Shown here: one piece after another, positions 1-34,673 of the stretch
How positions within the stretch are numbered: position 1 is the stretch's first letter
Layout: every line of letters begins with the position of its first letter
Assembly (NCBI GenBank): GCA_030706145.1
Contig: JAUZPB010000041.1
Location: 1-34,673 of the forward strand
Origin: Bacteroidota bacterium
Lineage (GTDB): Bacteria; Bacteroidota; Ignavibacteria; Ignavibacteriales; SURF-24
Reading direction: 5' to 3'
Length of the DNA: 34,673 nucleotides
Notes under the pieces: generated by a model
The model's input: only the letters and a program-made list of their open reading frames with translations
The model's database searches: none
What the model was told of the DNA's origin: nothing
Program-made: the position numbers and the translations under genes

Positions 1-1176
1 ACTGTAGAGGAAAGGACTGCAAGGCTGGTGCAGTTAAATGAGAAGCTTGAAGAGGAGATAAAAAAGCAGAAGCTTTCTGAAGAGAAGATACAGAGCCAGG
101 TTGAATTCCTTAGAACGCTTATTGATACTATACCTAAACCTCTCTTTATTAAATCTAAGACTAGAAGATATATAGATTGCAACAAAGCCTTTGGAGAACT
201 GTTCCATAGACCAAAAGATGAGGTAATTGGGCTAACGGCCTACGATATTTTTCCAAAGGAAGTAGCAGAAGTAAATGAGCAGAAAGATTCTGAACTTTTC
301 AATAATCCGGGAAATCAGTTCCTGGAATTTCATTATAATAGTTTATTTGGCACTGAACATTATGTTACTATAAATAAAGCTACTTATGTTAATCCTTATG
401 GAGCATTAGAAGGAATTATAGGAATAATTGAGGATATTACTGAATACAGGCAAATGCAAGCCGATATAAAAATCGCACTTGAAAAAGAAAAGGAACTCAA
501 CTCTTTAAAGTCCAGATTTATTTCAAATGCTTCGCATGAATTCAGGACACCTCTTACAGTAATACTTGCATCGGCTGACCTGCTGGAGATGTTTGGGAAG
601 AACTGGAAAGAGGAAAAATTCAAAGAACATACTTCAAAGATCAGGCGAACCGTTAAATACATGATCGAATTGCTTGATGATGTACTTACTATTAGCAGGA
701 CAGAGACAGGGAAAGTTACCTTTAGACCTGAAAATATCAACTTCTATAATCTATGCTGTGAAGTAATAGAAAACGTCAAGCTTCGGAAATTGGAAAATCA
801 CGAAATTTTCTTTTCTTATAACAGTCCAGAGCATTTTCTAATGGCCGACGAAAAGCTCTTAAAACAGATATTGCTGAACCTTCTTGTAAATTCTGTTAAG
901 TATTCACCTAATGGGGGGCAGATTAAATTTATTGTTGATATAAACGATAATATAGCATCTATCGAAATTGCAGACCAGGGGATAGGAATACCCGAAGAGA
1001 ATATAGATTTACTTTTTGAACCTTTTATCAGAGCTGAAAACGTAGGAAATATTCCAGGTACCGGACTAGGGCTTTCCATTGTAAAAAGATCTGTAGAGAT
1101 GCACAATGGAAATATAAAACTTAAATCCAAGGTTAACGAAGGGACAACTTTCTATATAAATATTCCAACTGCATAG
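1..1176 (+). CDS. Sensor histidine kinase, C-terminal part (PAS domain + HisKA + HATPase_c); ORF is open to the window edge so 5' truncated (if complete, GTG at 28)
   Basis: Frame 1 has no stop from position 1. H-box 'SHEFRTPLTVI', N-box 'LLNLLVNSVKYSP', G1 'IADQGIGIP', G2 'GTGLGLSIV'. PAS-like segment 'IDCNKAFGELFHRPKDEVIGLTAYDIF' lies upstream of the kinase core. Confidence 0.85.
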   Translation, partial: TVEERTARLVQLNEKLEEEIKKQKLSEEKIQSQVEFLRTLIDTIPKPLFIKSKTRRYIDCNKAFGELFHRPKDEVIGLTAYDIFPKEVAEVNEQKDSELFNNPGNQFLEFHYNSLFGTEHYVTINKATYVNPYGALEGIIGIIEDITEYRQMQADIKIALEKEKELNSLKSRFISNASHEFRTPLTVILASADLLEMFGKNWKEEKFKEHTSKIRRTVKYMIELLDDVLTISRTETGKVTFRPENINFYNLCCEVIENVKLRKLENHEIFFSYNSPEHFLMADEKLLKQILLNLLVNSVKYSPNGGQIKFIVDINDNIASIEIADQGIGIPEENIDLLFEPFIRAENVGNIPGTGLGLSIVKRSVEMHNGNIKLKSKVNEGTTFYINIPTA

Positions 1177-1184
1177 GTTGAAAA

Positions 1185-1568
1185 ATGGAAAAGATCCTAA
1201 TAGTAGATGATTCCCCGGATATCACTACCTCACTATCGGATTTACTTAAAGAATGCGGCTATTATGTCTATAGTGCACACTGCGTAGAACAGGGTTTTTC
1301 TCTAGCCAAGCAGGTAATGCCGGACCTAATACTTAGCGACATACTTATGCCCAAAACAGATGGATATGAGTTCTTAAAAATGCTCAAGGAAGAGGAAAAG
1401 ACTTCAAATATTCCTGTAATATTTATTTCAGCCAAAGCTGAAAAGTCTGAGAGTCTTAAAAGTTTTGAAGCCGGCGTCTGCGATTTTATTCTAAAGCCTT
1501 ATGATGCCAAAGGACTCTTAAAGATCATTTCAGAAATATTTATTAAAGCACCCGAGGAAACATCCTGA
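1185..1568 (+). CDS. Single-domain CheY-like response regulator receiver protein
   Basis: 127 aa. 'LIVDDSP' acidic pocket, phospho-acceptor Asp in 'LILSDILMP', conserved Lys in 'LKPYD'. Starts 8 nt after the kinase stop, so probably co-transcribed. Confidence 0.85.
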   Translation: MEKILIVDDSPDITTSLSDLLKECGYYVYSAHCVEQGFSLAKQVMPDLILSDILMPKTDGYEFLKMLKEEEKTSNIPVIFISAKAEKSESLKSFEAGVCDFILKPYDAKGLLKIISEIFIKAPEETS

Positions 1569-1615: not shown

Positions 1616-2371
1616 ATGAAGAAAATACTCATAATAGAAGATGACATAGAGGTCCGTTCAGGACTAATTGACCTTTTGGAAGAATCTGGCTTTAAGGTAA
1701 TTCCTTCTTCGACAGGCAAAGAAGGAATACTACTTAGCAAGGAACTTCTGCCCGACCTTATTATCAGCGATATTATGATGCCAGGTTTAAGTGGAATTGA
1801 TGTTATAAAAGAACTAAACTCTCACACTTCTACAAAGCTGATCCCACTGATATTTCTTACAGCAAAAAAGGAAATGACCGATCTTAGAGAGGCAATGGAA
1901 TATGGGGCTGCTGATTATATTGTAAAGCCTTATGATGCAAATGATCTGTTAAGAGCCATTAATGTAAGGATAGAAAAAGCCGAGGCATATAAAAACCTGA
2001 TCAAAAAAGAGAAAAAGAAAACAGGCAGAAAACCCGGCTACACTGAAAGAATCACGCTTATAGTAGAGGGCAAGCCCGAATTTATCAAGCTCTCAGATAT
2101 AGTCTGCATTGAAGCAGAAAACATATACTCTACTGTTTATCTGAACAATGGACATAATTTTTTGATAAGAAAATCTCTCAGAAATTGGGAACAAGTACTC
2201 CCTGATTCTGAATTCTTAAGGATTCACAGGTCTACTATAATAAATATTAATTTTATAGACAGAATAGAGAAGTGGTACAAGCGTTCTTTAAAGATCTACC
2301 TAAAGAATTCACACCGCAGTTTTATTATAAGTCAGCGCTATGCCGTAAAGATCAAATCTTCTGTAATATAA
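1616..2371 (+). CDS. LytTR-family response regulator (REC + LytTR DNA-binding domain)
   Basis: N-terminal receiver ('ILIIEDD', 'LIISDIMMPGLSG', 'VKPYD'). C-terminal LytTR signature 'RIHRSTIININFIDRIE' and 'IYSTVYLNNGHNFLIRKSL'. Confidence 0.85.
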   Translation: MKKILIIEDDIEVRSGLIDLLEESGFKVIPSSTGKEGILLSKELLPDLIISDIMMPGLSGIDVIKELNSHTSTKLIPLIFLTAKKEMTDLREAMEYGAADYIVKPYDANDLLRAINVRIEKAEAYKNLIKKEKKKTGRKPGYTERITLIVEGKPEFIKLSDIVCIEAENIYSTVYLNNGHNFLIRKSLRNWEQVLPDSEFLRIHRSTIININFIDRIEKWYKRSLKIYLKNSHRSFIISQRYAVKIKSSVI

Positions 2372-2483
2372 TTTATTTTCAATTAACTTCTAAAATACAA
2401 TTCATGTAATAGTGTAAGTAGACCTAAAGTACTTAAATTAAGACTTAATCTTTTTACCTGCGCCTTATAATTTTCACCTTTAC

Positions 2484-2570
2484 TCTTCTATTTTTTATTT
2501 GTGTTCTTCTATTTTTTACATAATACCTTTGTACTTTTTCCGCTTACAACATTATATGTGCGTTTACAAC
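2484..2570. promoter_or_regulatory. Two pairs of direct repeats with ~20-21 nt period in the 267-nt intergenic region; candidate LytTR-type regulator binding site
   Basis: 'TCTTCTATTTTTTAT' at 2484-2498 and 'TCTTCTATTTTTTAC' at 2505-2519 (14/15 identical, 21-nt offset). 'CGCTTACAAC' at 2541-2550 and 'CGTTTACAAC' at 2561-2570 (9/10 identical, 20-nt offset). LytTR regulators (AgrA, ComE, AlgR) bind imperfect direct repeats spaced about two helical turns apart. Confidence 0.3.
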
Positions 2571-2638
2571 TTTTTTCTACCAAAATCCTTGTTGTTTAGC
2601 GAATATTGCAATAAAAATATCCCGGAGGTAGAAAGAAG

Positions 2639-3748
2639 ATGTGTAGTAGTAGTATACTTATAGTAGATGATGAACCTGAGGTAAGAAATAACTTAGCCGA
2701 ACTTCTTGATAACTTCGGCTATAAATCCATCCAGGCCACAGACGGCGCTGATGCATTTAGCTATTTGGAAAATTCAATTTTGAAGAATTCTCTCCCTGAC
2801 CTTATAATTTCAGATATAATGATGCCCAAGATGAATGGCTTTAAGCTATTGGAAACAGTTCAGGAAAATCCAATCTTGCAGAACATTCCATTTATTTTAT
2901 TAACTGCAAAAAACGATGACTTATCATTTAGAGGCGGAATGAATCATGGAGCAGACGACTTTATAACAAAGCCATACGATGCATCTGAATTATTAAAGGC
3001 AATTGAAGTAAGATTAAATAAAAGTAAAAGAGCTTCTGTAGCTGTGGATGAAGTTGTTAATAATATATTGATGTATGTGCCTCACGAACTTAGAACTCCT
3101 CTTTCATCTATTTCAGGTTTTTCACAACTAATTACCGAGAGCTATTATTTTCTTTCAGCTGATGAAATTTACGATATGGTAAGCAAGATAGATCAAAGCA
3201 ACAAAAGGCTTCACAGGACAGTAGAAAAGTTCATAGCTCTTTCAGAGATAATCTGTATTCAGTCTGATGCTAATAGAAAGAATGAATTAAAAGACAGGTA
3301 TCTTAATGAAACAGAGTTTGTAATACGCGGCTCTGCTTTATCCAAAGCCGATGAATATGGAAGAACAGATGATATTAAGTACCATCTTACTAGTTCGGGT
3401 GCTTTAATTACAGAGGAATTTTTGCATCTGGTAGTAATGGAACTGACTGAGAACGCAATGAAATTTTCACAATCAGGCACACCCATTGAAATAAGCTCCA
3501 GAACTGAAGATGACCTGTTTATTCTGATCATTAAAGATTATGGGAAGGGGATGAGTATTGAAGAAATAGCAAAGATAAGTGCATTTATTCAGTTTGGAAG
3601 GAAATTCCATCAGCAAGAAGGCAATGGACTTGGGCTTACCATAGTACAAAAAGCAGCAGACCTCTTTTCGGGCAGTGTTATGATAGTTAGTGAAAGAAAT
3701 AAATACACACAAGTTACTGTAACTCTTAGATTAACTCCCACATACTAA
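2639..3748 (+). CDS. Hybrid response-regulator/histidine kinase (N-terminal REC followed by HisKA + HATPase_c)
   Basis: 'ILIVDDEPEV', 'LIISDIMMPKMNG', 'ITKPYD' receiver. H-box 'VPHELRTPLSSISGF'. N-box 'ELTENAMKF', G1 'IKDYGKGMS', G2 'GNGLGLTIV'. RBS GGAGG at 2624-2628. Confidence 0.8.
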   Translation: MCSSSILIVDDEPEVRNNLAELLDNFGYKSIQATDGADAFSYLENSILKNSLPDLIISDIMMPKMNGFKLLETVQENPILQNIPFILLTAKNDDLSFRGGMNHGADDFITKPYDASELLKAIEVRLNKSKRASVAVDEVVNNILMYVPHELRTPLSSISGFSQLITESYYFLSADEIYDMVSKIDQSNKRLHRTVEKFIALSEIICIQSDANRKNELKDRYLNETEFVIRGSALSKADEYGRTDDIKYHLTSSGALITEEFLHLVVMELTENAMKFSQSGTPIEISSRTEDDLFILIIKDYGKGMSIEEIAKISAFIQFGRKFHQQEGNGLGLTIVQKAADLFSGSVMIVSERNKYTQVTVTLRLTPTY

Positions 3749-7370: not shown

Positions 7371-7434
7371 AAAGCCAATACTTGTCAAAGCCGTTTTTTG
7401 TCAAAGCCGGTTTTTGTCAAAGCCAGTACTTGGG
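7371..7434. repeat. Four copies of AAAGCC spaced exactly 16 nt apart, with three tandem 16-nt units 'TTGTCAAAGCCGKTTT'
   Basis: AAAGCC at 7371, 7387, 7403, 7419. TTGTCAAAGCC at 7382-7392, 7398-7408, 7414-7424. The last unit overlaps the stop codon of the minus-strand PRC-barrel gene. Confidence 0.7.
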
Positions 7435-8406: not shown

Positions 8407-8475
8407 ATAGCTCTATAGCTAATAGCTCTATAGCTAATAGCTCTAAGCTAATTACTCTAAACTAATAGTCAATAG
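8407..8475. repeat. Tandem 15-nt repeat (2 perfect + 2 degenerate copies) made of palindromic TAGCTA/CTATAG hexamers
   Basis: 'ATAGCTCTATAGCTA' at 8407-8421 and 8422-8436. Degenerate copies at 8437-8450 and 8451-8464. Lies 50-115 nt upstream of the 8522 start. Confidence 0.7.
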
Positions 8476-8521: not shown

Positions 8522-10108
8522 ATGGAATACAGGGATATCAACATAGGTAAGCTGAGCGAATTTGAAGAAAATGAAATGCGATCTGTTACTATAGATAAAC
8601 ATAGCTTTTTACTTATAAGGTCAGAAGGAAAAGTCTATGCAATAGATGGATTATGCACACATTATGGAGCTCCGCTTGAAGAGGGAATTCTTTGCAGAGA
8701 AAATGTTATATGCCCCTGGCACCATTCATATTTCAATATAAAGACAGGCAAAGCAATTGAGCCTCCTGCTTTTAATTCACTCAACAGGTATGATGTAATA
8801 CTTAATGGTGAAGATATAATTTTAAGACTCCCTGAAAACGTTGAAAATGGCCGCACGCCTGAGATGGCAACATATGAGGCACAAAAAGATTCAAGGACAT
8901 TTGTTATACTAGGGGCAGGGGCTTCTGCCTACATGGCAGCACAGACCTTAAGAGAAGATGGGTTTAAAGGACGGATACTAATGCTCACATACGAAAACCA
9001 TACACCTTATGACCGTCCAAATTTAAGCAAGGAATACCTCATGGGTTCGGCACCTGATGAATGGATGCCCTTAAGGACAGATGACTTTTTTAGCAGTTAT
9101 GGCATTGAGATAATAAAACAGATGAAAGTAACAGAAGCAGATGCCGAAAAAAAGCAGATAAGATTTGAAAACGGTAATACTTTATCTTTCGATAAAATGC
9201 TAATTGCTACAGGCGGAACGCCCAAAAGACTTGAAATACCGGGCTCGAAGCTTCAGAACATATTTTACCTGCGCACCTTTGATGATGCCGATAGAATAAT
9301 TGAATCAACAGTTAAAGCCAGAAGAGTTGTTATAATTGGAAGCAGTTTTATTGCAATGGAAGCAGCTTTCAGTCTTCGGAAAAGAAAACTCTCCGTTGCA
9401 GTCATCTCACCAGATAAGGTTCCATTTGAAAAGGCTTTTGGCAGCGAAATTGGCGGTTTGTTTTTTGACCTGCACAAAAAAAACGGCGTGGAATTCCGCA
9501 TGGAAACATCAGTAGAAAGTTTCGAAGGCAATAAAAGAGTAGAAGCCGTTGTGCTTTCAAATGGAGAGAAAATTGAGACCGATATTGTTGTCGTTGGAAT
9601 TGGTGTAAAACCAGCTACAGATTTTATTAAAGGTATATCATTAGAAAAAGATGGATCAATAAAAGTTGACCAGTTCTTCCGTGCAGCCGAGGATGTATTT
9701 GCTTCAGGAGATATAGTAAGCTTTCCTGACTGGCGTTCAGGTGAAGTATTAAGAATAGAACACTGGAGAACTGCTCAGCAGCAGGGGAAAAATGCAGCTC
9801 ATAATATGCTTGGAAATGTTACGCCTGATAACTTTGTACCTTTCTTCTGGACACACCAGCTTGGATTGGAGCTACGTTATGTAGGGCACGCCAAACAGTG
9901 GGACGAAATTATTATAAAAGGAGATGTAAAATCTAAAGATTTTATTGCATATTACATTAAAGATAATCAGGTCTACGCAGCCGCAGGTAATAACCGTGAT
10001 AAGGAAATAGCCGCAATTGAAGAACTGATGCGCCGTGAGAAAATGCCTTCTGCTGATGAACTTAGAAATGGCAGCCCGGAAGACCTGCTTAGACTAATAC
10101 AGCAGTAA
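8522..10108 (+). CDS. Rieske [2Fe-2S] domain fused to an FAD/NAD(P)-dependent pyridine-nucleotide-disulfide oxidoreductase (AIFM3-like architecture)
   Basis: Rieske boxes 'CTHYGAPL' and 'CPWHHSYF'. FAD Rossmann 'FVILGAGASAYMAAQ'. Second NAD fold 'VVIIGSSFIAMEAA'. RBS GGGAGAG. Confidence 0.8.
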   Translation: MEYRDINIGKLSEFEENEMRSVTIDKHSFLLIRSEGKVYAIDGLCTHYGAPLEEGILCRENVICPWHHSYFNIKTGKAIEPPAFNSLNRYDVILNGEDIILRLPENVENGRTPEMATYEAQKDSRTFVILGAGASAYMAAQTLREDGFKGRILMLTYENHTPYDRPNLSKEYLMGSAPDEWMPLRTDDFFSSYGIEIIKQMKVTEADAEKKQIRFENGNTLSFDKMLIATGGTPKRLEIPGSKLQNIFYLRTFDDADRIIESTVKARRVVIIGSSFIAMEAAFSLRKRKLSVAVISPDKVPFEKAFGSEIGGLFFDLHKKNGVEFRMETSVESFEGNKRVEAVVLSNGEKIETDIVVVGIGVKPATDFIKGISLEKDGSIKVDQFFRAAEDVFASGDIVSFPDWRSGEVLRIEHWRTAQQQGKNAAHNMLGNVTPDNFVPFFWTHQLGLELRYVGHAKQWDEIIIKGDVKSKDFIAYYIKDNQVYAAAGNNRDKEIAAIEELMRREKMPSADELRNGSPEDLLRLIQQ

Positions 10109-11585: not shown

Positions 11586-11613
11586 TTTTCTTTTTTTGTC
11601 CTCAGGCAAAAAA

Positions 11614-11656
11614 AAGCTGCTTATCAAGGAAAGAAGTTTATTAAGAAAAGCAGCTT
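11614..11656 (+). terminator. Possible terminator hairpin with a long loop after the oxidoreductase gene
   Basis: 9-bp inverted repeat AAGCTGCTT (11614-11622) / AAGCAGCTT (11648-11656), 25-nt loop, followed by ATTTAAG (weak U-tract). Confidence 0.2.
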
Positions 11657-11824
11657 ATTTAAGTTATAAGTTTTACCATAGATAGATTGTTTGCTTGTTC
11701 ATATATTGTCCTTGAAAAGAATTATTTGCTGCCCTTTATAAAATAGTTTTATTAAAAATGGTCAGAAGTTTTCCGCACAATTCTATTCAGATTGTTTAAC
11801 TTTATATCCCTTTGTATTGGATAA

Positions 11825-16293: not shown

Positions 16294-16523
16294 TCTCTTC
16301 TCATTTGTGCTTTCCAAAGTTTACTATCCCTCCATTGTTTATGAGTGGATCTACAATAATAAGATATTAAATTTTAACTTAAGTTTTCAGCCACTAATTT
16401 TCAGCTATTAATGTATTTCCAGAGATCCTTTCCAGCGTAAGAAACATAAAATAAATAGATATATTTTATTACGAGGCAATATAGTATTCAGGCTTTCCTT
16501 TTTAAGTTAAGGCATTATTTTTT

Positions 16524-19608: not shown

Positions 19609-19751
19609 GCTTTAAAAAATTGAACCACTGACATTTTTAATGGAATATAGTTATCAATAACTCAAATGAAAATTATTTTTCATATAAAAATAACACGCTT
19701 TGTTTTTTTTAATGCTTATAAGCTTCTAAAATATACTTCTAAAGTAAACTC

Positions 19752-20510
19752 CTAAAGTAATAAGCACGCTTCAGCTGAAAGCCTGAATAGAAGGTCCCTT
19801 ACATCGTGCTGCTTAAGCCAGTTCCTGTGATCCCACTCCTCGCAGCTTACATCATCTCCGCCATAGAGCATTTGTCCAAGTTTTACCTGACGGAATTCTG
19901 CTACAGCAAAGAATGCAGAGGCTTCCATTTCAACTGTAAGACACCCTTCGGATCTTCTTTTATTTACCTTATCAATTGTCTCACGGTAAACTGCATCGGT
20001 TGTCCATGTCTTTGAAAGGATATATTCAATTCCATGTTTTGAAAGCACAGTTTTAATTGCTTCAACAGCTTCAGGATTTGCACTAACTTCTCTTGAAGGA
20101 GGAAGGTAGTGATATGAGACTCCCTCATCCCTTATGGCACTCTCCGGAATTACTATTTTACCGCATTGTATCTGCCTGTCTAAGACTCCTGCGCTGCCGC
20201 ATACTATAAATTTCCTGCAGCCTAAAGCAATTAACTCCTCAAGTATTGCTACAGCAAGCGGAGCTCCTACACCCGAAGTAATAAAGGCAATTGTTTTCCC
20301 GTCAAATTCTGTTTCATAGACATGATGCTCAGACATTTCACTTCTAAGAGTGAAGACCTTCTTTGCCTTGTTCTCGTTTATAAGCTTATCTGTGACTTCC
20401 TTAAAAAAGGATATTACGCAGTATTCTGAAATATCGATCTTTTTAACAATTTTTTCAGGTTCAATTATGGCCTTACGTGCCGGATCAAATTCTAGAATAG
20501 GATATTGCAT
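19752..20510 (-). CDS. PNP/UDP-family nucleoside phosphorylase
   Basis: 'GVGAPLAVAILEELIALGCRKFIVCGSAGVL' phosphorylase family-1 core. 'LTVEMEASAFFAVA' C-terminal motif. Confidence 0.7.
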   Translation of the reverse strand: MQYPILEFDPARKAIIEPEKIVKKIDISEYCVISFFKEVTDKLINENKAKKVFTLRSEMSEHHVYETEFDGKTIAFITSGVGAPLAVAILEELIALGCRKFIVCGSAGVLDRQIQCGKIVIPESAIRDEGVSYHYLPPSREVSANPEAVEAIKTVLSKHGIEYILSKTWTTDAVYRETIDKVNKRRSEGCLTVEMEASAFFAVAEFRQVKLGQMLYGGDDVSCEEWDHRNWLKQHDVRDLLFRLSAEACLLL

Positions 20511-27592: not shown

Positions 27593-27680
27593 TGCAGACT
27601 CCATATTTGTTTATTTAAACTGTAGAAAACTAGATCACACAAAAGATTGAATTACAAAAACTGAATTACAAAACACTTAA

Positions 27681-29189
27681 TTACATTTGTTTTTGAAATA
27701 CAACAGGCTTTGTATTTGGACTAACCTCAACCGACAGAGCATTTACTCTGTTATTCATATCTTTAATAAAAACAGTTTTCCATCCTGCATGCTCTGCAGG
27801 ATGATATAATTCAAATGCATCTTCCCCCATATAATTCAAGGGACAATCATAATTGTCTACTTTTACTTTTAATGAATCATTTTCAACTTTAACACATAAA
27901 GATCCATAACCCTGACTTACATAAGTCCCTGCACTTTGCTCTAGAAGTAGAGATGGCACCTTTGCATTTTCAACTTTATTATTTTTTTCCTCCTCCAAAA
28001 TTTGTTTCATCTGCGCTTCATAGAGTGCAAGTGCTTTTTGCTGCCAATCTATAGGATCAAGTTTCAGAATTTTATCCATCATATATCTTTCCAAAACATC
28101 AACAAAGGGGGTCCCGTTTAGATTTGCAAGAATTACTATCCCAATTTTTTCTTTGGGCATAAAAGTAACCTTTGAAGTAAAGCCGTATAAAACCCCACCA
28201 TGGTATATGTGCAGATAACCCCTGTAGTAATCAATCATCCATCCCATTCCATAGTTAGCATATGATATCTCGGACCTCGGGGTTTGTCCTGGAATAACTA
28301 CCTGGGGAGATTGTAACTGCTGTAAGCTTCTTGGACTTATAAGAGAGCTGTCGTGAACCTTTCCACTATTCAAATTGAACTCTACCCATTTTAACATATC
28401 ATCTACATTTGAAATAATGCAGCCTGCAGCTCCTAGTATATATGCATTGTGAAATTCCATCTTCTCAGGATCTTTATCCCAGATTATGTATGGCGTTGCA
28501 CAATCTGTTTTGTCTATAATATCATTAAAAGAAAGCTGAGTACTTTTCATTTCAAGAGGATCAAGTATTCTTTTTCTTATTAGGTCTTCCCAGGAGGTAG
28601 TACCCTCTCTTTCTGCAATCATATCTCCTGCTACAGTGTAGGCTTCATTACAATATTGCCACAATGTTCTAAAATCCAGATTAGGTTCAAAGTACCTGAA
28701 GCATCTACGAACATCGCGCCTGTCAGCAGGTGGATTCAAACTAAAGAACTTCTGCCGGGGTATGCCTGTACGGTGTGTAAGTAAATCCCTTAGTGTAACT
28801 TTTCCACTAATAAGTGAATCGTACATCTTAAAATCAGGAAAATAGTTTTCAAGAGGGACGTCAAAACTCATTTTCTTTTCCTCTACAGCCATAGCTGCCA
28901 GAGTTGCTGTAAAGGCCTTAGAAGATGAGCCTATTGAAAACAGTGTTTTAGGTGTTACTTTTTCTTTTGTCTTTAGGTCTTTATATCCAAACCCTTTACT
29001 GTAAATGACATTGCCATCTTTAATAATTCCTACTGCAAGTCCGGGTATGTCCCACTTTTGCATTGCTGTATCAATAAAGGAATCAATTTCCTTTATGGCC
29101 CTTATATCAGAAATGCTTTCTTGAGGTGCAGTTATTCCTGTGGCAAATAAAAGAGCTATAATAATGCTAAAAAGTTTTATTCTGTTCAT
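27681..29189 (-). CDS. Exported beta-lactamase-fold serine hydrolase (class C / PBP4-like esterase family) with extra C-terminal domain
   Basis: Signal peptide. S-x-x-K in 'GSSSKAF'. 'YANYG' (Y-x-N). 'HGG' near 'IYHGGVLYG'. Confidence 0.75.
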   Translation of the reverse strand: MNRIKLFSIIIALLFATGITAPQESISDIRAIKEIDSFIDTAMQKWDIPGLAVGIIKDGNVIYSKGFGYKDLKTKEKVTPKTLFSIGSSSKAFTATLAAMAVEEKKMSFDVPLENYFPDFKMYDSLISGKVTLRDLLTHRTGIPRQKFFSLNPPADRRDVRRCFRYFEPNLDFRTLWQYCNEAYTVAGDMIAEREGTTSWEDLIRKRILDPLEMKSTQLSFNDIIDKTDCATPYIIWDKDPEKMEFHNAYILGAAGCIISNVDDMLKWVEFNLNSGKVHDSSLISPRSLQQLQSPQVVIPGQTPRSEISYANYGMGWMIDYYRGYLHIYHGGVLYGFTSKVTFMPKEKIGIVILANLNGTPFVDVLERYMMDKILKLDPIDWQQKALALYEAQMKQILEEEKNNKVENAKVPSLLLEQSAGTYVSQGYGSLCVKVENDSLKVKVDNYDCPLNYMGEDAFELYHPAEHAGWKTVFIKDMNNRVNALSVEVSPNTKPVVFQKQM

Positions 29190-29222: not shown

Positions 29223-32210
29223 TTATCTTATGATCTTTTCTATACTGCCAAAGAGATCTTTCTGCTCACTGATTTTTTCGTCGTTTCCATATACGCAGTA
29301 AGCATTCTGCTCAAGTACTGCTTTTATCATTTTTCTTAGACTTTTTATGTCATCCATAGAAGTATTAAGGACCGCATCACGAAGCTTCTGCAGATCTTCC
29401 CGGCTTACATTGTTAAAATAATTTGTAATGGCTGTATTAGCTTTCTGTGAAACAGACAGGGGAGCGTCCATTGCGGCAATTGTTCCTATTATATAGCGTG
29501 TAATATCCTTTTCCTTTAGCTGAAGCTTGTCTAAGTATTCAATTGTAGCATTGTAGTTTTCGAGAGTCTCTTTAAGGTTTGGATCTCTGTAGGACATAAA
29601 GACAAAGTTACCAAGGTCATCAACACTACTAAAGCCTCCATAAGCCCCGCCAATAACTCTTATCCTGTTATGCAGCCAGTCTCTTGAGATTATCTGATTA
29701 AGTACTTTTACTTTTCCGTTCCAGTCGAATCCCAGCTTTTTAATATTATAGCCTTTTACAACATACTGAACCTTAGAGGGGGTCTGGAGACCTTCATTTT
29801 TTTTCTGGAAAGAAAACTTCCATTTATTTAGAAGTGTGGGTTTTGAATCAAAAGAAGTGATAAATTTTCCTATTTTTTCCTGGCATTCTGATCTGTCGCC
29901 CTTACTGCATGTAATGAGCATTGTCATGTTATTCTTATTAAATAGAAGTGAAGCCGTTTTAATTAAATTTGATTTAATTTCATCAGATCTCTTATCAAAA
30001 TTTCTGGCAAGATCAGTTATAAGCCAGTAATAGCTTATTCCACCTGTAAGCTCATTGAACATACCCATGTTTGTGAAATATGAAAGAGTCCTTATCTGCG
30101 CAAAGGTTAGTCCATTTTCTTTTACCTGTGCATCTAAACGTGATTGGTATCTTAAAAGAATAGCTTTCAGCCTGTCTGTATCTTCATATTTTGTCCTGTT
30201 AAGAATTTCACCTATAAGGTCAAACATTTCATTTGTTTTGTTATCCATTGCCTTGGAGCTTACAACAAACTTTGGTATTAAATTATTATCATCCCTCTTT
30301 TCAGCATAAGTGTTTATAAAGGCGCTAAAACCTCCTGTACTGATATTCAACTGGTTATTCAGATCTCCATATGAGTACGTCTTTGTATTCTGATTTCCCA
30401 GTACTTCAGTCAGAATTGCAGCATATGGTAATAGCTCCTGCGGAAGGACCCTTAAGTCGAAAAATAGCCTTGTATAGACAACATTATTTGAAAATGCTTC
30501 ATAGGAAAGCACCGGAACATCTTCAACTATATTTTCATTTAATTCATACCAATCGGCAGCCGGGTTAATATCCTTTCTTTCAAGCATGGGAACCGTGGCT
30601 AAAGCTTCAGGAGAGTCCTCTCTTTTCTGATATGCTACGAGATCTTTTGTCTCTTTTATTAGTTTATCTTTTTCCTCTTCACTCAGACTCGACTTAAATT
30701 TATCCAGTTCAAGGGCTGTTTGAGCATTTAACTGTTTATCATATCCGGGTTTTGGTTCAAGCGATATAAGTAATGAATGTGGATTATTGAGTATCTCTTC
30801 TTTTATTATTCTTTCAAGATAATCACCCGTTAGTGCTGTTTTGACCTTAGCCAAAGGTTTTTCATACTCAAGAGTTAAAAAAGGATCATTAGCAAAAAAC
30901 CATCCCGGCAATATCTGGAAAGCATAGTTTAGTCCCTGCTGCGAGTTATTTCCTTCTCTAAGAGAAAACTCGGTTCTGTTAAGTGATCCTTCTATGGCTT
31001 TTTTATCTATTCCTTTTTCTGCTACTTCTTTTAGTGTCTGAAGGATCACGCTTAAGAATTTGTCCTTATCACTTCCATTTGCATTTTGAACAGTTATTCC
31101 GAAAACGTTCTGGTGCATTTCATCTACCGTAGCTGTTACCTCACTGCCTATAGCTGCTTTTTGAAGTGCAAGTCTGATAGGAGCTGCTTCCTGATTTACA
31201 AGGACATCACAAAGTGTATTTAACCCCATTACCAATGCTCTGTCTGTATTTAAGCCTACAACAACTGAAAAAGAAAGATATGTCTGGTTCAAGGTATCCA
31301 TACCTTCGCTTACGGCATAAGGCAGAGTTACACTTTTCAGGGCAGGGAAGGGTTTCTGTATAGGAAAGACTTCCGGTTGAACTGCTTTTTCGTACTTATT
31401 TAAGTATTCTTTATTTATAAATTCTAATTCTTTATTTATATCTGCATCACCATAAAGTAAAATGTAGCAGTTTGAGGGGTGATAGTATTTATTATGATAT
31501 TTTACAAATGCCTCCTGTGTTAAACCAGGTATATCCTTTGGATATCCTCCGGAGGAAAACCTGTAGCCGTTATCAGGAAAGAGCAGTCTGTTTACCTGGT
31601 AGTTTAATTCACCTGTTGGATTTGAGTAAACGCCTTTCATTTCGTTATATACAACTCCTTTATAGGAAATTGGTCCATCTTTGCTCTCCATTTCATAGTG
31701 CCACCCTTCCTGTTTTAATATTCTTGTATCTGTCTTGAAATTAGGCTGAAATACTGCATCCAGATAAACATGCATCAGGTTGAAATAATCTTTGTTGTTT
31801 TTGCTGGCTACAGGAAAACACGTCATATCCTGACCAGTAAAGGCATTAATAAATGTTAGAAGTGATCCCTTGCGAAGGACATCATAAGGGCTTTTTACTG
31901 GAAATGATTTTGAACCATTCAGAGTCGAATGCTCAATAATGTGTGGAGTCCCCCAATTTGATTCAGGGTCCGTCCTGAATGCAATGGCGAATGTTTTATT
32001 GTCATCCTGTGCTTTTATTTTAAAAAGCCTTGCCCCGCTTTTTTCGTGAATAAAATATAAACACTCGGCATTGACTTCGCTCACAAACCGCTTTTCAAGC
32101 AGTTTGAAGCCTTCATATGTTTGGCCGGTTTTCATATCTTCTGCCTTTCCAATGCAGGGGCTAAGGAAAAGAGCTAATAGTAATAAGAAAATTGCTCTTG
32201 CCAGCTTCAT
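29223..32210 (-). CDS. Exported M16C-family (PreP-like) zinc metallopeptidase
   Basis: Inverted zinc motif 'HIIEHSTLNGS' (HxxEH). About 1000 aa length typical of M16C. Signal peptide 'LLLLALFLSPCIGKA'. AAGGAG RBS 8 nt upstream. Confidence 0.85.
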   Translation of the reverse strand: MKLARAIFLLLLALFLSPCIGKAEDMKTGQTYEGFKLLEKRFVSEVNAECLYFIHEKSGARLFKIKAQDDNKTFAIAFRTDPESNWGTPHIIEHSTLNGSKSFPVKSPYDVLRKGSLLTFINAFTGQDMTCFPVASKNNKDYFNLMHVYLDAVFQPNFKTDTRILKQEGWHYEMESKDGPISYKGVVYNEMKGVYSNPTGELNYQVNRLLFPDNGYRFSSGGYPKDIPGLTQEAFVKYHNKYYHPSNCYILLYGDADINKELEFINKEYLNKYEKAVQPEVFPIQKPFPALKSVTLPYAVSEGMDTLNQTYLSFSVVVGLNTDRALVMGLNTLCDVLVNQEAAPIRLALQKAAIGSEVTATVDEMHQNVFGITVQNANGSDKDKFLSVILQTLKEVAEKGIDKKAIEGSLNRTEFSLREGNNSQQGLNYAFQILPGWFFANDPFLTLEYEKPLAKVKTALTGDYLERIIKEEILNNPHSLLISLEPKPGYDKQLNAQTALELDKFKSSLSEEEKDKLIKETKDLVAYQKREDSPEALATVPMLERKDINPAADWYELNENIVEDVPVLSYEAFSNNVVYTRLFFDLRVLPQELLPYAAILTEVLGNQNTKTYSYGDLNNQLNISTGGFSAFINTYAEKRDDNNLIPKFVVSSKAMDNKTNEMFDLIGEILNRTKYEDTDRLKAILLRYQSRLDAQVKENGLTFAQIRTLSYFTNMGMFNELTGGISYYWLITDLARNFDKRSDEIKSNLIKTASLLFNKNNMTMLITCSKGDRSECQEKIGKFITSFDSKPTLLNKWKFSFQKKNEGLQTPSKVQYVVKGYNIKKLGFDWNGKVKVLNQIISRDWLHNRIRVIGGAYGGFSSVDDLGNFVFMSYRDPNLKETLENYNATIEYLDKLQLKEKDITRYIIGTIAAMDAPLSVSQKANTAITNYFNNVSREDLQKLRDAVLNTSMDDIKSLRKMIKAVLEQNAYCVYGNDEKISEQKDLFGSIEKIIR

Positions 32211-32598: not shown

Positions 32599-33579
32599 AT
32601 GAGCCAGTTATTAAAGACCGACATTTTAGTAAACAGCCTTGTAATACTTTTCCACTTCTTAAATTTCACAGTTGGATTAGCTGCGCTGTTTATTATTTTC
32701 AGGAAAGTGAGCCTTGTATCTTCTCAGATCCGCCGCTCTTTTTTTCAGCAGGCAGTTTTTTATAATCTGACACTTATACTTTCAGCTGTTACGGATTTTC
32801 TGGATTTTTTCTTCTGGAAGGTTGTTTCAAATAACATTTTCACACTTAGCATACTTTATTTTATAAATATATTTGCCTTGGCAACATATCTTATCTGGGC
32901 TCTTTCTTATGCCCAGATGGCATACAATTTTTTAGGCATTACTGAAGAGCTAAGGAAAAAAAGGTGGTTCAGGTATCTTTTTACTGCAGTAATGCTATAC
33001 CTGGTTTTCCTTTTTATAGTAAGAGTACTAAGACTAATACCAAATTTGTATTTCTTTTCCTCTCTTATTCTGGTGTTTGCAGGCTTAGGTACAGTTTTGG
33101 GGTATTCAATTTTCATCGGCCGGAAGTCAATTTCGGAGAAATTTCATGAAAGGAGAAAGGCCTTAAAGATACTTAGCAATCTTTTCATTGCCTTTAGCGT
33201 CACCAATATTTTTGTTTTCCTAAATTTCTATCCTTTTAATGTATTACCTCCACTTGCGACTAAATTTTCTTACAATGTAATGGATCTTATGTATAACTGC
33301 CTGATAATATTTTGGGCTTTGAAGTATTTAGATTCATTAAACAGATGCGAAGAGTCAACAGAAGCAGAAAGGTCATCTATTGGATCCAACATAGAAAAGT
33401 ATCAGATCTCCAAAAGGGAACTTGAAATAATCCATCTTGTATGCGCCGGAAAATCGAATCAGGAAATTGCCGATACTTTATTTATATCGCTTGGCACTGT
33501 AAAGAACCATTTGTATAACATTTATGCTAAGATTGGCATAAAAAACAGGACACAGCTTGCCAAATTATTCCAGGAATGA
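32599..33579 (+). CDS. One-component membrane regulator: 7 predicted TM helices fused to a C-terminal LuxR/GerE-type HTH
   Basis: Seven hydrophobic segments in residues 10-245. C-terminal 'ISKRELEIIHLVCAGKSNQEIADTLFISLGTVKNHLYNIYAKIG' is a LuxR-family HTH. Confidence 0.75.
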   Translation: MSQLLKTDILVNSLVILFHFLNFTVGLAALFIIFRKVSLVSSQIRRSFFQQAVFYNLTLILSAVTDFLDFFFWKVVSNNIFTLSILYFINIFALATYLIWALSYAQMAYNFLGITEELRKKRWFRYLFTAVMLYLVFLFIVRVLRLIPNLYFFSSLILVFAGLGTVLGYSIFIGRKSISEKFHERRKALKILSNLFIAFSVTNIFVFLNFYPFNVLPPLATKFSYNVMDLMYNCLIIFWALKYLDSLNRCEESTEAERSSIGSNIEKYQISKRELEIIHLVCAGKSNQEIADTLFISLGTVKNHLYNIYAKIGIKNRTQLAKLFQE

Positions 33580-33589
33580 TCCACAATTT

Positions 33590-33740
33590 TTCCCCATGTC
33601 CCCTTGTCACCCCATCCCCAAGTCCCCGTCAAGTCCCAACGCCCCTTGTCTTTGTCCCCAAGTCACCCCTTCCCAGCGCCCCTTGTCCCAGAAGCCCCTT
33701 GTCCCCCCATCCCCAAGTCCCCGTCAAGTCCCCCATCCTG
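33590..33740. repeat. Extremely C-rich (plus strand) repeat island: about 17 C3-6 tracts spaced 2-10 nt apart, including a 28-nt perfect direct repeat. Complementary strand is G-quadruplex-capable
   Basis: 'CCCCATCCCCAAGTCCCCGTCAAGTCCC' at 33610-33637 and again at 33706-33733. 'CCCCTTGTC' recurs 4 times. Almost no G on the plus strand across about 150 nt, inside an otherwise AT-rich genome. Fills the whole gap between two convergent genes. Confidence 0.85.
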
Positions 33741-33742
33741 CT

Positions 33743-34360
33743 CTAGCTTATCTCTATATCAAAGCATTGCAGAAGAGTCATTACCTCGGGCATACTAAAC
33801 TTTGCCTTCTTTATCTTGTTGAATTCAGGATTAATGTCATAGTTGCTAGCTTCCCTGAAGTCAGAGGCCGAAAGGTTGGTATTCTTAAATTTGCTTGAAA
33901 TAAAATTGGTCCCGTTAAATTTTCCTTTGCTTATATCTGCATTTTCAAAATTAACTTCCCGGGCCTCACATTCTGTTATTTCAATGCGCCTTAGATCCAT
34001 TGCAAAAAATATGGAGTAGTCTATTTTACTGCTTTCAACTTTTATCTTCACCGGTTCTTCTGCTTCTGTCCAGTTTATACCGATCATTTTACAATCAAAG
34101 AACTCACAGTCAATAAATCTGCTGCCTGTTAGTTTTACCAGCCCAAGATTGCAACTTTTGAAAGTACAGTTCTCAAACCTTACATATTTTAATTTTGTCT
34201 TCTCAAAGTTAACTTTTTCAAAAGTACATCCTGTAAATTCTATTTCCTTAAGCTCGCTTTCTGAAAGATCTTTACCATTAAAGGTTTCATTTAAATAGTA
34301 TTCTTCATCAAAGGACATTTTATTTTCACTCTCTTCATTTTGCTGATTTGGCTGGCTCAT
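33743..34360 (-). CDS. Pentapeptide-repeat protein
   Basis: Consecutive A(D/N)LxF-like pentapeptides ('FTGCTFEKVNFEKTKLKYVRFENCTFKSCNLGLVKLTGSRFIDCEFFDC', 'ENADISKGKFNGTNFISSKFKNTNLSASDF'). ATG at 34360. The ORF track start at 34375 is GTG. Confidence 0.75.
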   Translation of the reverse strand: MSQPNQQNEESENKMSFDEEYYLNETFNGKDLSESELKEIEFTGCTFEKVNFEKTKLKYVRFENCTFKSCNLGLVKLTGSRFIDCEFFDCKMIGINWTEAEEPVKIKVESSKIDYSIFFAMDLRRIEITECEAREVNFENADISKGKFNGTNFISSKFKNTNLSASDFREASNYDINPEFNKIKKAKFSMPEVMTLLQCFDIEIS

Positions 34361-34673
34361 CTTTATTTTTTCCACTTATTGTAAAATAAAACTATTGTTA
34401 TATAAAACTCCAGTGGACAAAATAACACATTTAATGCTTATTTCAATAGCCTAGTAGTTTGTTCTCCTTTTCTATATTTGAATCCATTGACTCAACAATA
34501 AGACGTAGCTTTGTGATGTTTATAAACCATGGGAATAAAATACTGGCAAATAAATGGCATTTATATTAAATTGAGCCTTGGAAAAATCGGTTCGATGTAG
34601 CAGTTTTTTTGCTTATCCTAAGATTTTTAGAAACTAAACCTATAGAAATTGTTGACCCGCTATTGGTAATTAT

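Follow-up and report, generated by a model that had tools for sequence, protein, structure and literature searches.

A pair of directly repeated 10-nt sequences, CGYTTACAAC-N10-CGYTTACAAC, lies in front of a hybrid kinase gene in the 34,673-nt stretch of DNA that we analysed (the window), and its conservation before the orthologous gene of at least seven distant relatives makes it very probably a regulator-binding site, as predicted from sequence. We consider it probable that this pair is a LytTR-type operator through which the regulator encoded upstream activates the hybrid kinase gene, whereas a T-rich pair of direct repeats in the same intergenic gap would not be a recognition element. For one uncharacterised LytTR protein of a poorly studied lineage, this yields a concrete binding-site prediction: CGYTTACAAC-N10-CGYTTACAAC, with a −10-like box about 30 nt downstream. 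A literature search found no paper tying LytTR to Ignavibacteria or Melioribacter. The operator is of a known type in an unstudied lineage, and the prediction is useful though unsurprising to a specialist.

The locus begins with a gene for a PAS-HisKA-HATPase kinase (28–1176, plus strand, by Pfam), the 5′ end of which is cut by the window edge; the complete gene, seen in locus L001, encodes 484 amino acids. It is followed by a gene for a single receiver domain (REC) protein (1185–1568, plus strand, by Pfam), the two together (28–1568) being the presumed phosphodonor module, and by the gene for the candidate operator binder, a REC-LytTR response regulator of 251 amino acids (1616–2371, plus strand; Pfam Response_reg 3e-26, LytTR 5e-21). 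The proposed regulated target is a hybrid REC-HisKA-HATPase_c kinase of 369 amino acids with no sensor domain (2639–3748, plus strand, by Pfam), and a Shine–Dalgarno sequence, GGAGG (2624–2628, plus strand), was read from the sequence 10 nt before its ATG. The REC-LytTR and REC-HisKA-HATPase genes that the sequence-only reading had placed on either side of the gap are thus confirmed by Pfam. Compared with NCBIfam, the regulator has BtsR among its best full-length matches, but it scores 68.8 bits against BtsR (cut-off 246) and 87.8 bits against LytR (cut-off 375), so it is a superfamily member only, reaching neither equivalog cut-off. The best genome-scan matches of the LytTR protein are in Melioribacter and Ignavibacteriales MAGs, at 36–48% identity; a metagenome scan with the hybrid kinase returned only relatives of at most 39% identity, none of them useful. 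The gap between the regulator gene and the hybrid kinase gene (2372–2638) is 267 nt long, with 27% GC against 38% for the window. Its small open reading frames give only low-complexity translations, and a search of 2300–2700 against Rfam (E ≤ 1) found no RNA family match. A scan for intrinsic terminators found none after the LytTR gene, and read-through transcription is therefore possible.

Two pairs of direct repeats had been described in this gap from the sequence alone, and reading the sequence and searching for exact matches placed both where they had been reported. The T-rich pair consists of TCTTCTATTTTTTAT (2484–2498, plus strand) and TCTTCTATTTTTTAC (2505–2519, plus strand), which are offset by 21 nt and have 14 exact bases in common. 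The second pair consists of a distal half-site, CGCTTACAAC (2541–2550, plus strand; CCGCTTACAACA with its flanks), and a proximal half-site, CGTTTACAAC (2561–2570, plus strand), which are offset by 20 nt and identical at 9 of 10 bases. Chance repetition in AT-rich DNA had been named as the threat to both pairs, and a shuffled-sequence control separated them: an exact repeat of at least 14 nt at offsets of 18–24 nt arose in 0 of 5,000 dinucleotide shuffles of the gap, whereas a 10-mer repeated with one mismatch, or better, arose in about 17%. The T-rich pair passes this control, and the second pair, taken alone, is not significant.

Comparison with related loci, obtained by fetching the contigs of hybrid-kinase homologs from a protein search and adding syntenic loci from a genome scan, gives the second pair its weight. 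CGYTTACAAC-N10-CGYTTACAAC is kept at an offset of 20 nt on the coding strand in L128, L129, L130, L134, L136 and L138 and is diverged in L004, the distal half-site being conserved in seven lineages. The distal and proximal half-sites read CGCTTACAAC and CGTTAACAAC in L129 (hybrid kinase 59% identical to that of the window), CTTTTACAAC and CGCTTACAAC in L130 (51%), CGCTTACAAC in both positions in L138 (47%), CGTTTACAAC and CGCTTGCAAC in L134 (46%), CCTTCACAAC and CGCTTACAAC, with a weak third copy, in L136 (44%), and the diverged CCCTTGAAAC and CGTTAGAAAC in L004 (37%). In L005 (38%), CCGCTTACTC is present with no convincing partner at +20. One further candidate ortholog, P0010 (42%), was rejected, because its context differs: a further kinase gene ends 7 nt ahead of it. 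A consensus scan that was kept non-circular by using the window alone to define the consensus (at most 3 mismatches in total, offsets of 19–21 nt, 1.75 million positions in about 130 loci) placed all matches upstream of hybrid-kinase orthologs, with zero background; about 0.88 Mb of control loci held no match to the CGYTTACAAC pair elsewhere. Within the 34.7-kb window and 4.4 kb upstream of it there is no second copy of the site pair; searching the window and the other loci for more copies of either motif gave single degenerate matches only, from which no regulon emerged, and no sign of a CGYTTACAAC site was seen in front of the PAS-kinase operon.

The alignment of seven promoters (A3) is nearly gapless, and its invariant columns cluster at the distal half-site (C13, T16, T17, A20, A21, C22 and A23), at the proximal half-site (C33, G34, T36, A40, A41 and C42) and at a downstream AAWATT box. 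Between the window and L128, whose hybrid kinase is 98% identical, the 61 nt around the second pair (2520–2580) carry no substitution (0/61), whereas the flanks of the gap outside this invariant block differ by about 12%: 11 of 92 positions at 2372–2463, 6 of 36 across the T-rich pair (2484–2519) and 7 of 58 at 2581–2638, with the 20 nt at 2464–2483 deleted in L128. It is the second pair, with this footprint in relatives, on which the claim of a LytTR-type operator before the hybrid kinase gene now stands; for the T-rich pair, which is unstable and not conserved beyond the closest relatives, the footprint gives it no support.

Downstream of the second pair, alignment and spacing point to a conserved A/T box, AATATTGC (AAWATTGC; 2602–2609, plus strand), as a probable −10-type element. 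The box, or a close variant of it, follows the proximal half-site by 30–31 nt in the window, L128, L129, L138, L130, L134 and L133; the distance in L004 is 31 nt. L136 has a TATAATTC box, which follows its third, weak repeat by 30 nt. The proximal half-site ends 62–68 nt before the ATG in the window, L128, L129, L130, L134, L138 and L004, and the expected −35 positions read TACCAA-like sequences. A simple sigma-70 scan, with a model that may not fit this lineage, found no plus-strand promoter in the gap and returned minus-strand or within-gene matches only; given this null result, the promoter is possibly of a non-canonical type. The sequence TAccTTTG at 2526–2533 matches the Bacteroidetes-type −7 box; that reading was dropped because the sequence is not conserved in L130, L134, L136 or L138.

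The geometry of the pair is also close to that of known operators of this family. Published LytTR sites comprise two direct repeats of 9–11 nt with a spacer of 11–13 nt and share no consensus (PMC4847170). The present site is 10 + 10, or 9 + 11 if the repeat is read as GYTTACAAC, and its period of 20 lies at the low edge of the published 20–24. The 12–13-nt spacer that had been expected of it does not fit the conserved site exactly.

Synteny and co-variation bear on which protein binds. Where the upstream flank is present, in L128, L130, L134, L136 and L004, the immediate upstream neighbour of the gap is a REC-LytTR gene, and synteny of such a gene with the hybrid kinase extends over L128, L130, L134, L136, L137, L004, L005 and L006. 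A sensor kinase gene precedes the LytTR gene in L004, L005, L128, L130, L134 and L136, with a single-domain REC gene between the two in L128, L130, L134 and L136. The LytTR domains encoded beside CGYTTACAAC sites are 47–67% identical to that of the window protein; those of L137 and L006 are 33–41% identical and accompany a different repeat, CGTTTRTC, present twice at an offset of 21 nt. Divergence of the regulator together with a changed repeat is what co-variation between the protein and its site would produce, as judged from these sequences. The exception is L133, in which three related period-20 repeats (CGCTTACTCC-type) precede the hybrid-kinase ortholog and the upstream neighbour is OmpA-like, not LytTR. 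The regulator gene is thus not adjacent in every case, and the binder could be some other protein; the regulator of L133 would have to be encoded elsewhere. The proposal that the regulator encoded just upstream controls the hybrid kinase draws support from the conserved pair with REC-LytTR directly upstream in five loci and loses some to L133.

We regard it as unlikely that the CGYTTACAAC pair is a real operator bound by a different protein, such as a global regulator or, in an autoregulatory loop, the regulator that is cognate to the hybrid kinase. The repeats of L133 behind an OmpA-like gene would agree with such a binder, as would the lack of an NCBIfam equivalog assignment for the LytTR regulator. 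OmpR/PhoB-type sites repeat at about 10–11 nt, unlike the period of 20 seen here. Against a different binder there is further the LytTR gene immediately upstream wherever the flank is present, the change of site in the lineage with the most divergent LytTR domain, and the fact that direct repeats of 9–11 nt about two helical turns apart are a LytTR hallmark (PMC4847170).

On the preferred reading, with the LytTR regulator as binder, the PAS kinase of the cluster would phosphorylate the REC-LytTR regulator, and two regulator molecules would occupy the direct repeats, one on each; with a period of 20 bp, both would sit on one face of the helix. With the AAWATT box as the −10 element and transcription starting a few bases past AAWATTGC (2602–2609), the repeats would lie near −50 and −70, and the bound regulator would compensate for a poor −35 region by recruiting RNA polymerase; we infer activation rather than repression. 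A signal received by the first kinase would then lead to synthesis of the second, sensor-less kinase, whose receiver domain could in turn be phosphorylated. The outcome would be a transcriptionally wired relay with a second signalling tier, and the conserved arrangement points to one two-component system exerting transcriptional control over a second kinase.

The AgrA repeat of Staphylococcus aureus is of the ACAGTTAAG type, unrelated in sequence to CGYTTACAAC, and has a period of 21 rather than 20. The AgrA repeats lie just upstream of agr P2 and P3, promoters with suboptimal core elements, so that there, as in the present locus, a direct repeat with its copies about two helical turns apart precedes a suboptimal promoter, which here is a putative one (PMC4227749). 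In both cases a REC-LytTR regulator is encoded beside its target, which also belongs to a signalling pathway, with binding predicted in the locus studied here. The partners differ (an AgrC-type peptide sensor for AgrA, a PAS/HisKA kinase here), as do the targets (an autoinducer operon versus a sensor-less REC-kinase) and the hosts (S. aureus versus an uncultured Ignavibacteria-related lineage). In Escherichia coli, the YpdB target promoter PyhjX contains the 10-nt motif GGCATTTCAT twice, and its sites A and B are filled cooperatively (PMC4847170). YpdB/yhjX and BtsR/yjiY (btsT) share with the present locus a directly repeated 10-nt motif and a single nearby target gene, but their spacer is 11–13 nt rather than 10, and they combine a LytS-type kinase with a transporter target, whereas here a kinase that is not of the LytS type is combined with a kinase target. 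The operators of AlgR, ComE and PlnC likewise consist of imperfect direct repeats with a fixed spacer, with regulator and target in one locus, and lie upstream of the −35 region (PMC4847170); their consensus sequences differ from CGYTTACAAC, and they serve quorum sensing, bacteriocin production or alginate synthesis, nothing of which kind is found in this locus.

The T-rich pair behaves differently. It falls within a decayed tandem array of about four units with a period of about 21 nt (2448–2530, plus strand), recognised by aligning units of the window to the L128 unit CTTTTTACCTGCGCTCTTCTA, and phased T-tracts start at 2451, 2471, 2491, 2512 and 2535, 20–21 nt apart. In L128 (1914–1963), TRF reports a perfect 21-nt array, CTTTTTACCTGCGCTCTTCTA × 2.4 with 100% matches, in which the 'spacer' is repeated too; at a score of at least 30 it does not detect the array in the window itself, which marks the version found there as decayed. 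The C/T difference is concerted, as each of the two T-rich copies of L128 reads TCTTCTACTTTTTAC. In L002, a near-identical sister MAG, the whole gap differs by a single base, an extra T within T-rich copy 1 that raises the offset to 22. No counterpart of the T-rich repeat was found upstream of the operator in L130, L134, L136, L138 or L004, a comparison from which L129 was left out because its contig ends 12 nt upstream of the distal half-site. The T-rich pair thus shows head-to-tail units that include the spacer, length differences between close relatives and a lack of deep conservation, as a slippage array does. Judged by these sequences, it would most simply be a neutral slippage product, part of a young, copy-number-variable and lineage-specific 21-nt tandem array generated by replication slippage, and not a recognition element. 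The resemblance to the short VNTR arrays that slippage produces in bacterial intergenic DNA lies in the head-to-tail 21-nt units, which one strain has in perfect and another in decayed form, and in the differences between close relatives, namely an indel the size of one unit and a change in the length of a homopolymer; the T-rich array differs in being very short (2–4 units) and in giving no sign of phase-variable expression. We also considered that the array might represent decayed extra copies of the operator and rejected the idea, since a local alignment of the two is no better than that of shuffles (p = 0.99 for the window, 0.31 for L128).

Real DNA also puts the shuffle result in perspective. 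A further exact 14-mer at an offset of 21 nt, ATTCTTTATTTATA, occurs in the window at 31406–31440, inside an M16-peptidase open reading frame (29223–32210, minus strand), and presumably arose there by coincidence over 7 codons or by a small duplication in frame; 887 kb or so of other loci contain 19 exact repeats of at least 14 nt at offsets of 18–24 nt, and TRF reports 14 short tandem arrays in the window. Because equal repeats occur in real DNA and shuffles do not model tandem duplication, repeat length alone cannot decide function, and the shuffle significance of the T-rich pair is a mark of mutation by tandem duplication and need not indicate selection. The question of function was decided by comparative footprinting instead, with the lesson that the winner of the shuffle test appears to be a non-conserved slippage product and the statistically weak repeat appears to be under selection.

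The T-rich pair is present in two copies in the window, L002 and L128, the three closest genomes, and may have a lineage-specific role there; in the mechanism that we favour, the array would contribute at most curved, phased T-tract DNA far upstream of the promoter. A more ambitious proposal makes the conserved cluster (sensor kinase, single REC, REC-LytTR, operator and sensor-less REC-kinase) an undescribed two-tier unit of Ignavibacteria-like bacteria, in which the first kinase both induces the second by way of the LytTR operator and activates it by way of its receiver domain (a coherent feed-forward arrangement) and, in the present lineage, the slippage-prone T-tract array tunes the system from strain to strain; we hold this to be decidedly unlikely. 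It is very unlikely that the array works as curved DNA or as an UP-like element that tunes the promoter, with the number of units and the length of the T-runs giving variation among strains. The regular placing of the five T-tracts and the variation in copy number and T-run length among close relatives would suit such a role, but there is no conservation beyond the closest relatives, and with many short intergenic tandem arrays in this genome neutral slippage may suffice as an explanation.

The main proposal of the sequence-only reading, that the T-rich pair (TCTTCTATTTTTTAY twice, offset 21) itself binds a LytTR regulator, whether by itself or jointly with the second pair, we likewise judge very improbable. 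Its 14 exact bases at an offset of 21 nt were matched in none of the shuffles, the window, L002 and L128 all retain it in two copies, and a 21-nt period fits classical LytTR spacing (PMC4847170). Set against these are its absence from the five more distant loci (L130, L134, L136, L138 and L004), its place as the most variable part of the gap relative to L128 (6 of 36 positions plus the adjoining 20-nt indel), the altered spacing caused by the extra T in copy 1 of L002, and the perfect L128 array, spacer included, which points to recent slippage; an equal repeat lies inside a coding gene of the window, and the pair sits about 85–125 nt upstream of the inferred −10 box. That both pairs are non-functional, products of chance or slippage in an AT-rich spacer, is extremely improbable: the second pair was equalled or bettered in about 17% of shuffles and the window is rich in short tandem repeats, but comparative data contradict this reading, since that pair keeps its spacing, strand and position in front of proteins 37–59% identical and occurs nowhere else in about 0.88 Mb.

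Several further observations were made along the way. A single inverted half-site-like copy (CTTACAC; TACTTACACTAT on the minus strand) lies at 2409–2420, about 40 nt after the LytTR stop codon; the copy near 2409–2420 forms with 2543–2558 an inverted repeat (I1; 16 nt, 81%), and it is kept in L128 as CTGCTTACAC, a change that brings it nearer to the consensus. L133 (1887–1938) and L136 (2888–2937), which come from the same sample (SRR26782595), both have three period-20 repeats of the CGCTTAC family, with a LytTR neighbour in L136 only; one regulator may serve two promoters if the two contigs share one genome. The proteins of the sister MAGs L128 (GCA_050258775.1) and L130 (GCA_050262615.1) carry the source names 'Clostridiales bacterium' and 'Bacillota bacterium', and the nearest genomic relatives of the window's regulator are from Melioribacter/Ignavibacteriales; these deposited taxonomy labels may be unreliable.

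The hybrid kinase gene of the window has a convergent nitronate-monooxygenase-like gene as its downstream neighbour, and the genes 3′ of the hybrid kinase vary by lineage, with CheW in L137 (2493–2984), a Cache-HAMP chemoreceptor in L133 (3260–5638) and an unannotated protein of about 520–550 amino acids in L134 (4099–5754) and L136 (4104–5693). These varied neighbours hint at chemotaxis-like outputs of the second kinase in some relatives. Short tandem arrays with a period of 13–17 nt and 2–4 copies occur in many intergenic regions of the window (7371–7432, 8407–8468, 11612–11659, 16379–16412, 19718–19760, 27639–27685 and 34377–34409), an example being ATAGCTCTATAGCTA × 4.3, which shortly precedes the gene for a Rieske/FAD oxidoreductase at 8522; the intergenic arrays suggest that the genome as a whole is prone to forming them, or else that they are regulatory sites so far unrecognised. 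At 33615–33722 the window holds C-rich, GCCCCTTGTCCCCCAA-like repeats with a period of 16 and more copies at offsets of 37 and 40, in the region of the overlapping open reading frames 33557–33898 (plus strand) and 33743–34375 (minus strand), and similar repeats, CCCTTGTCCC, occur in L138 (1–30) upstream of its operator.
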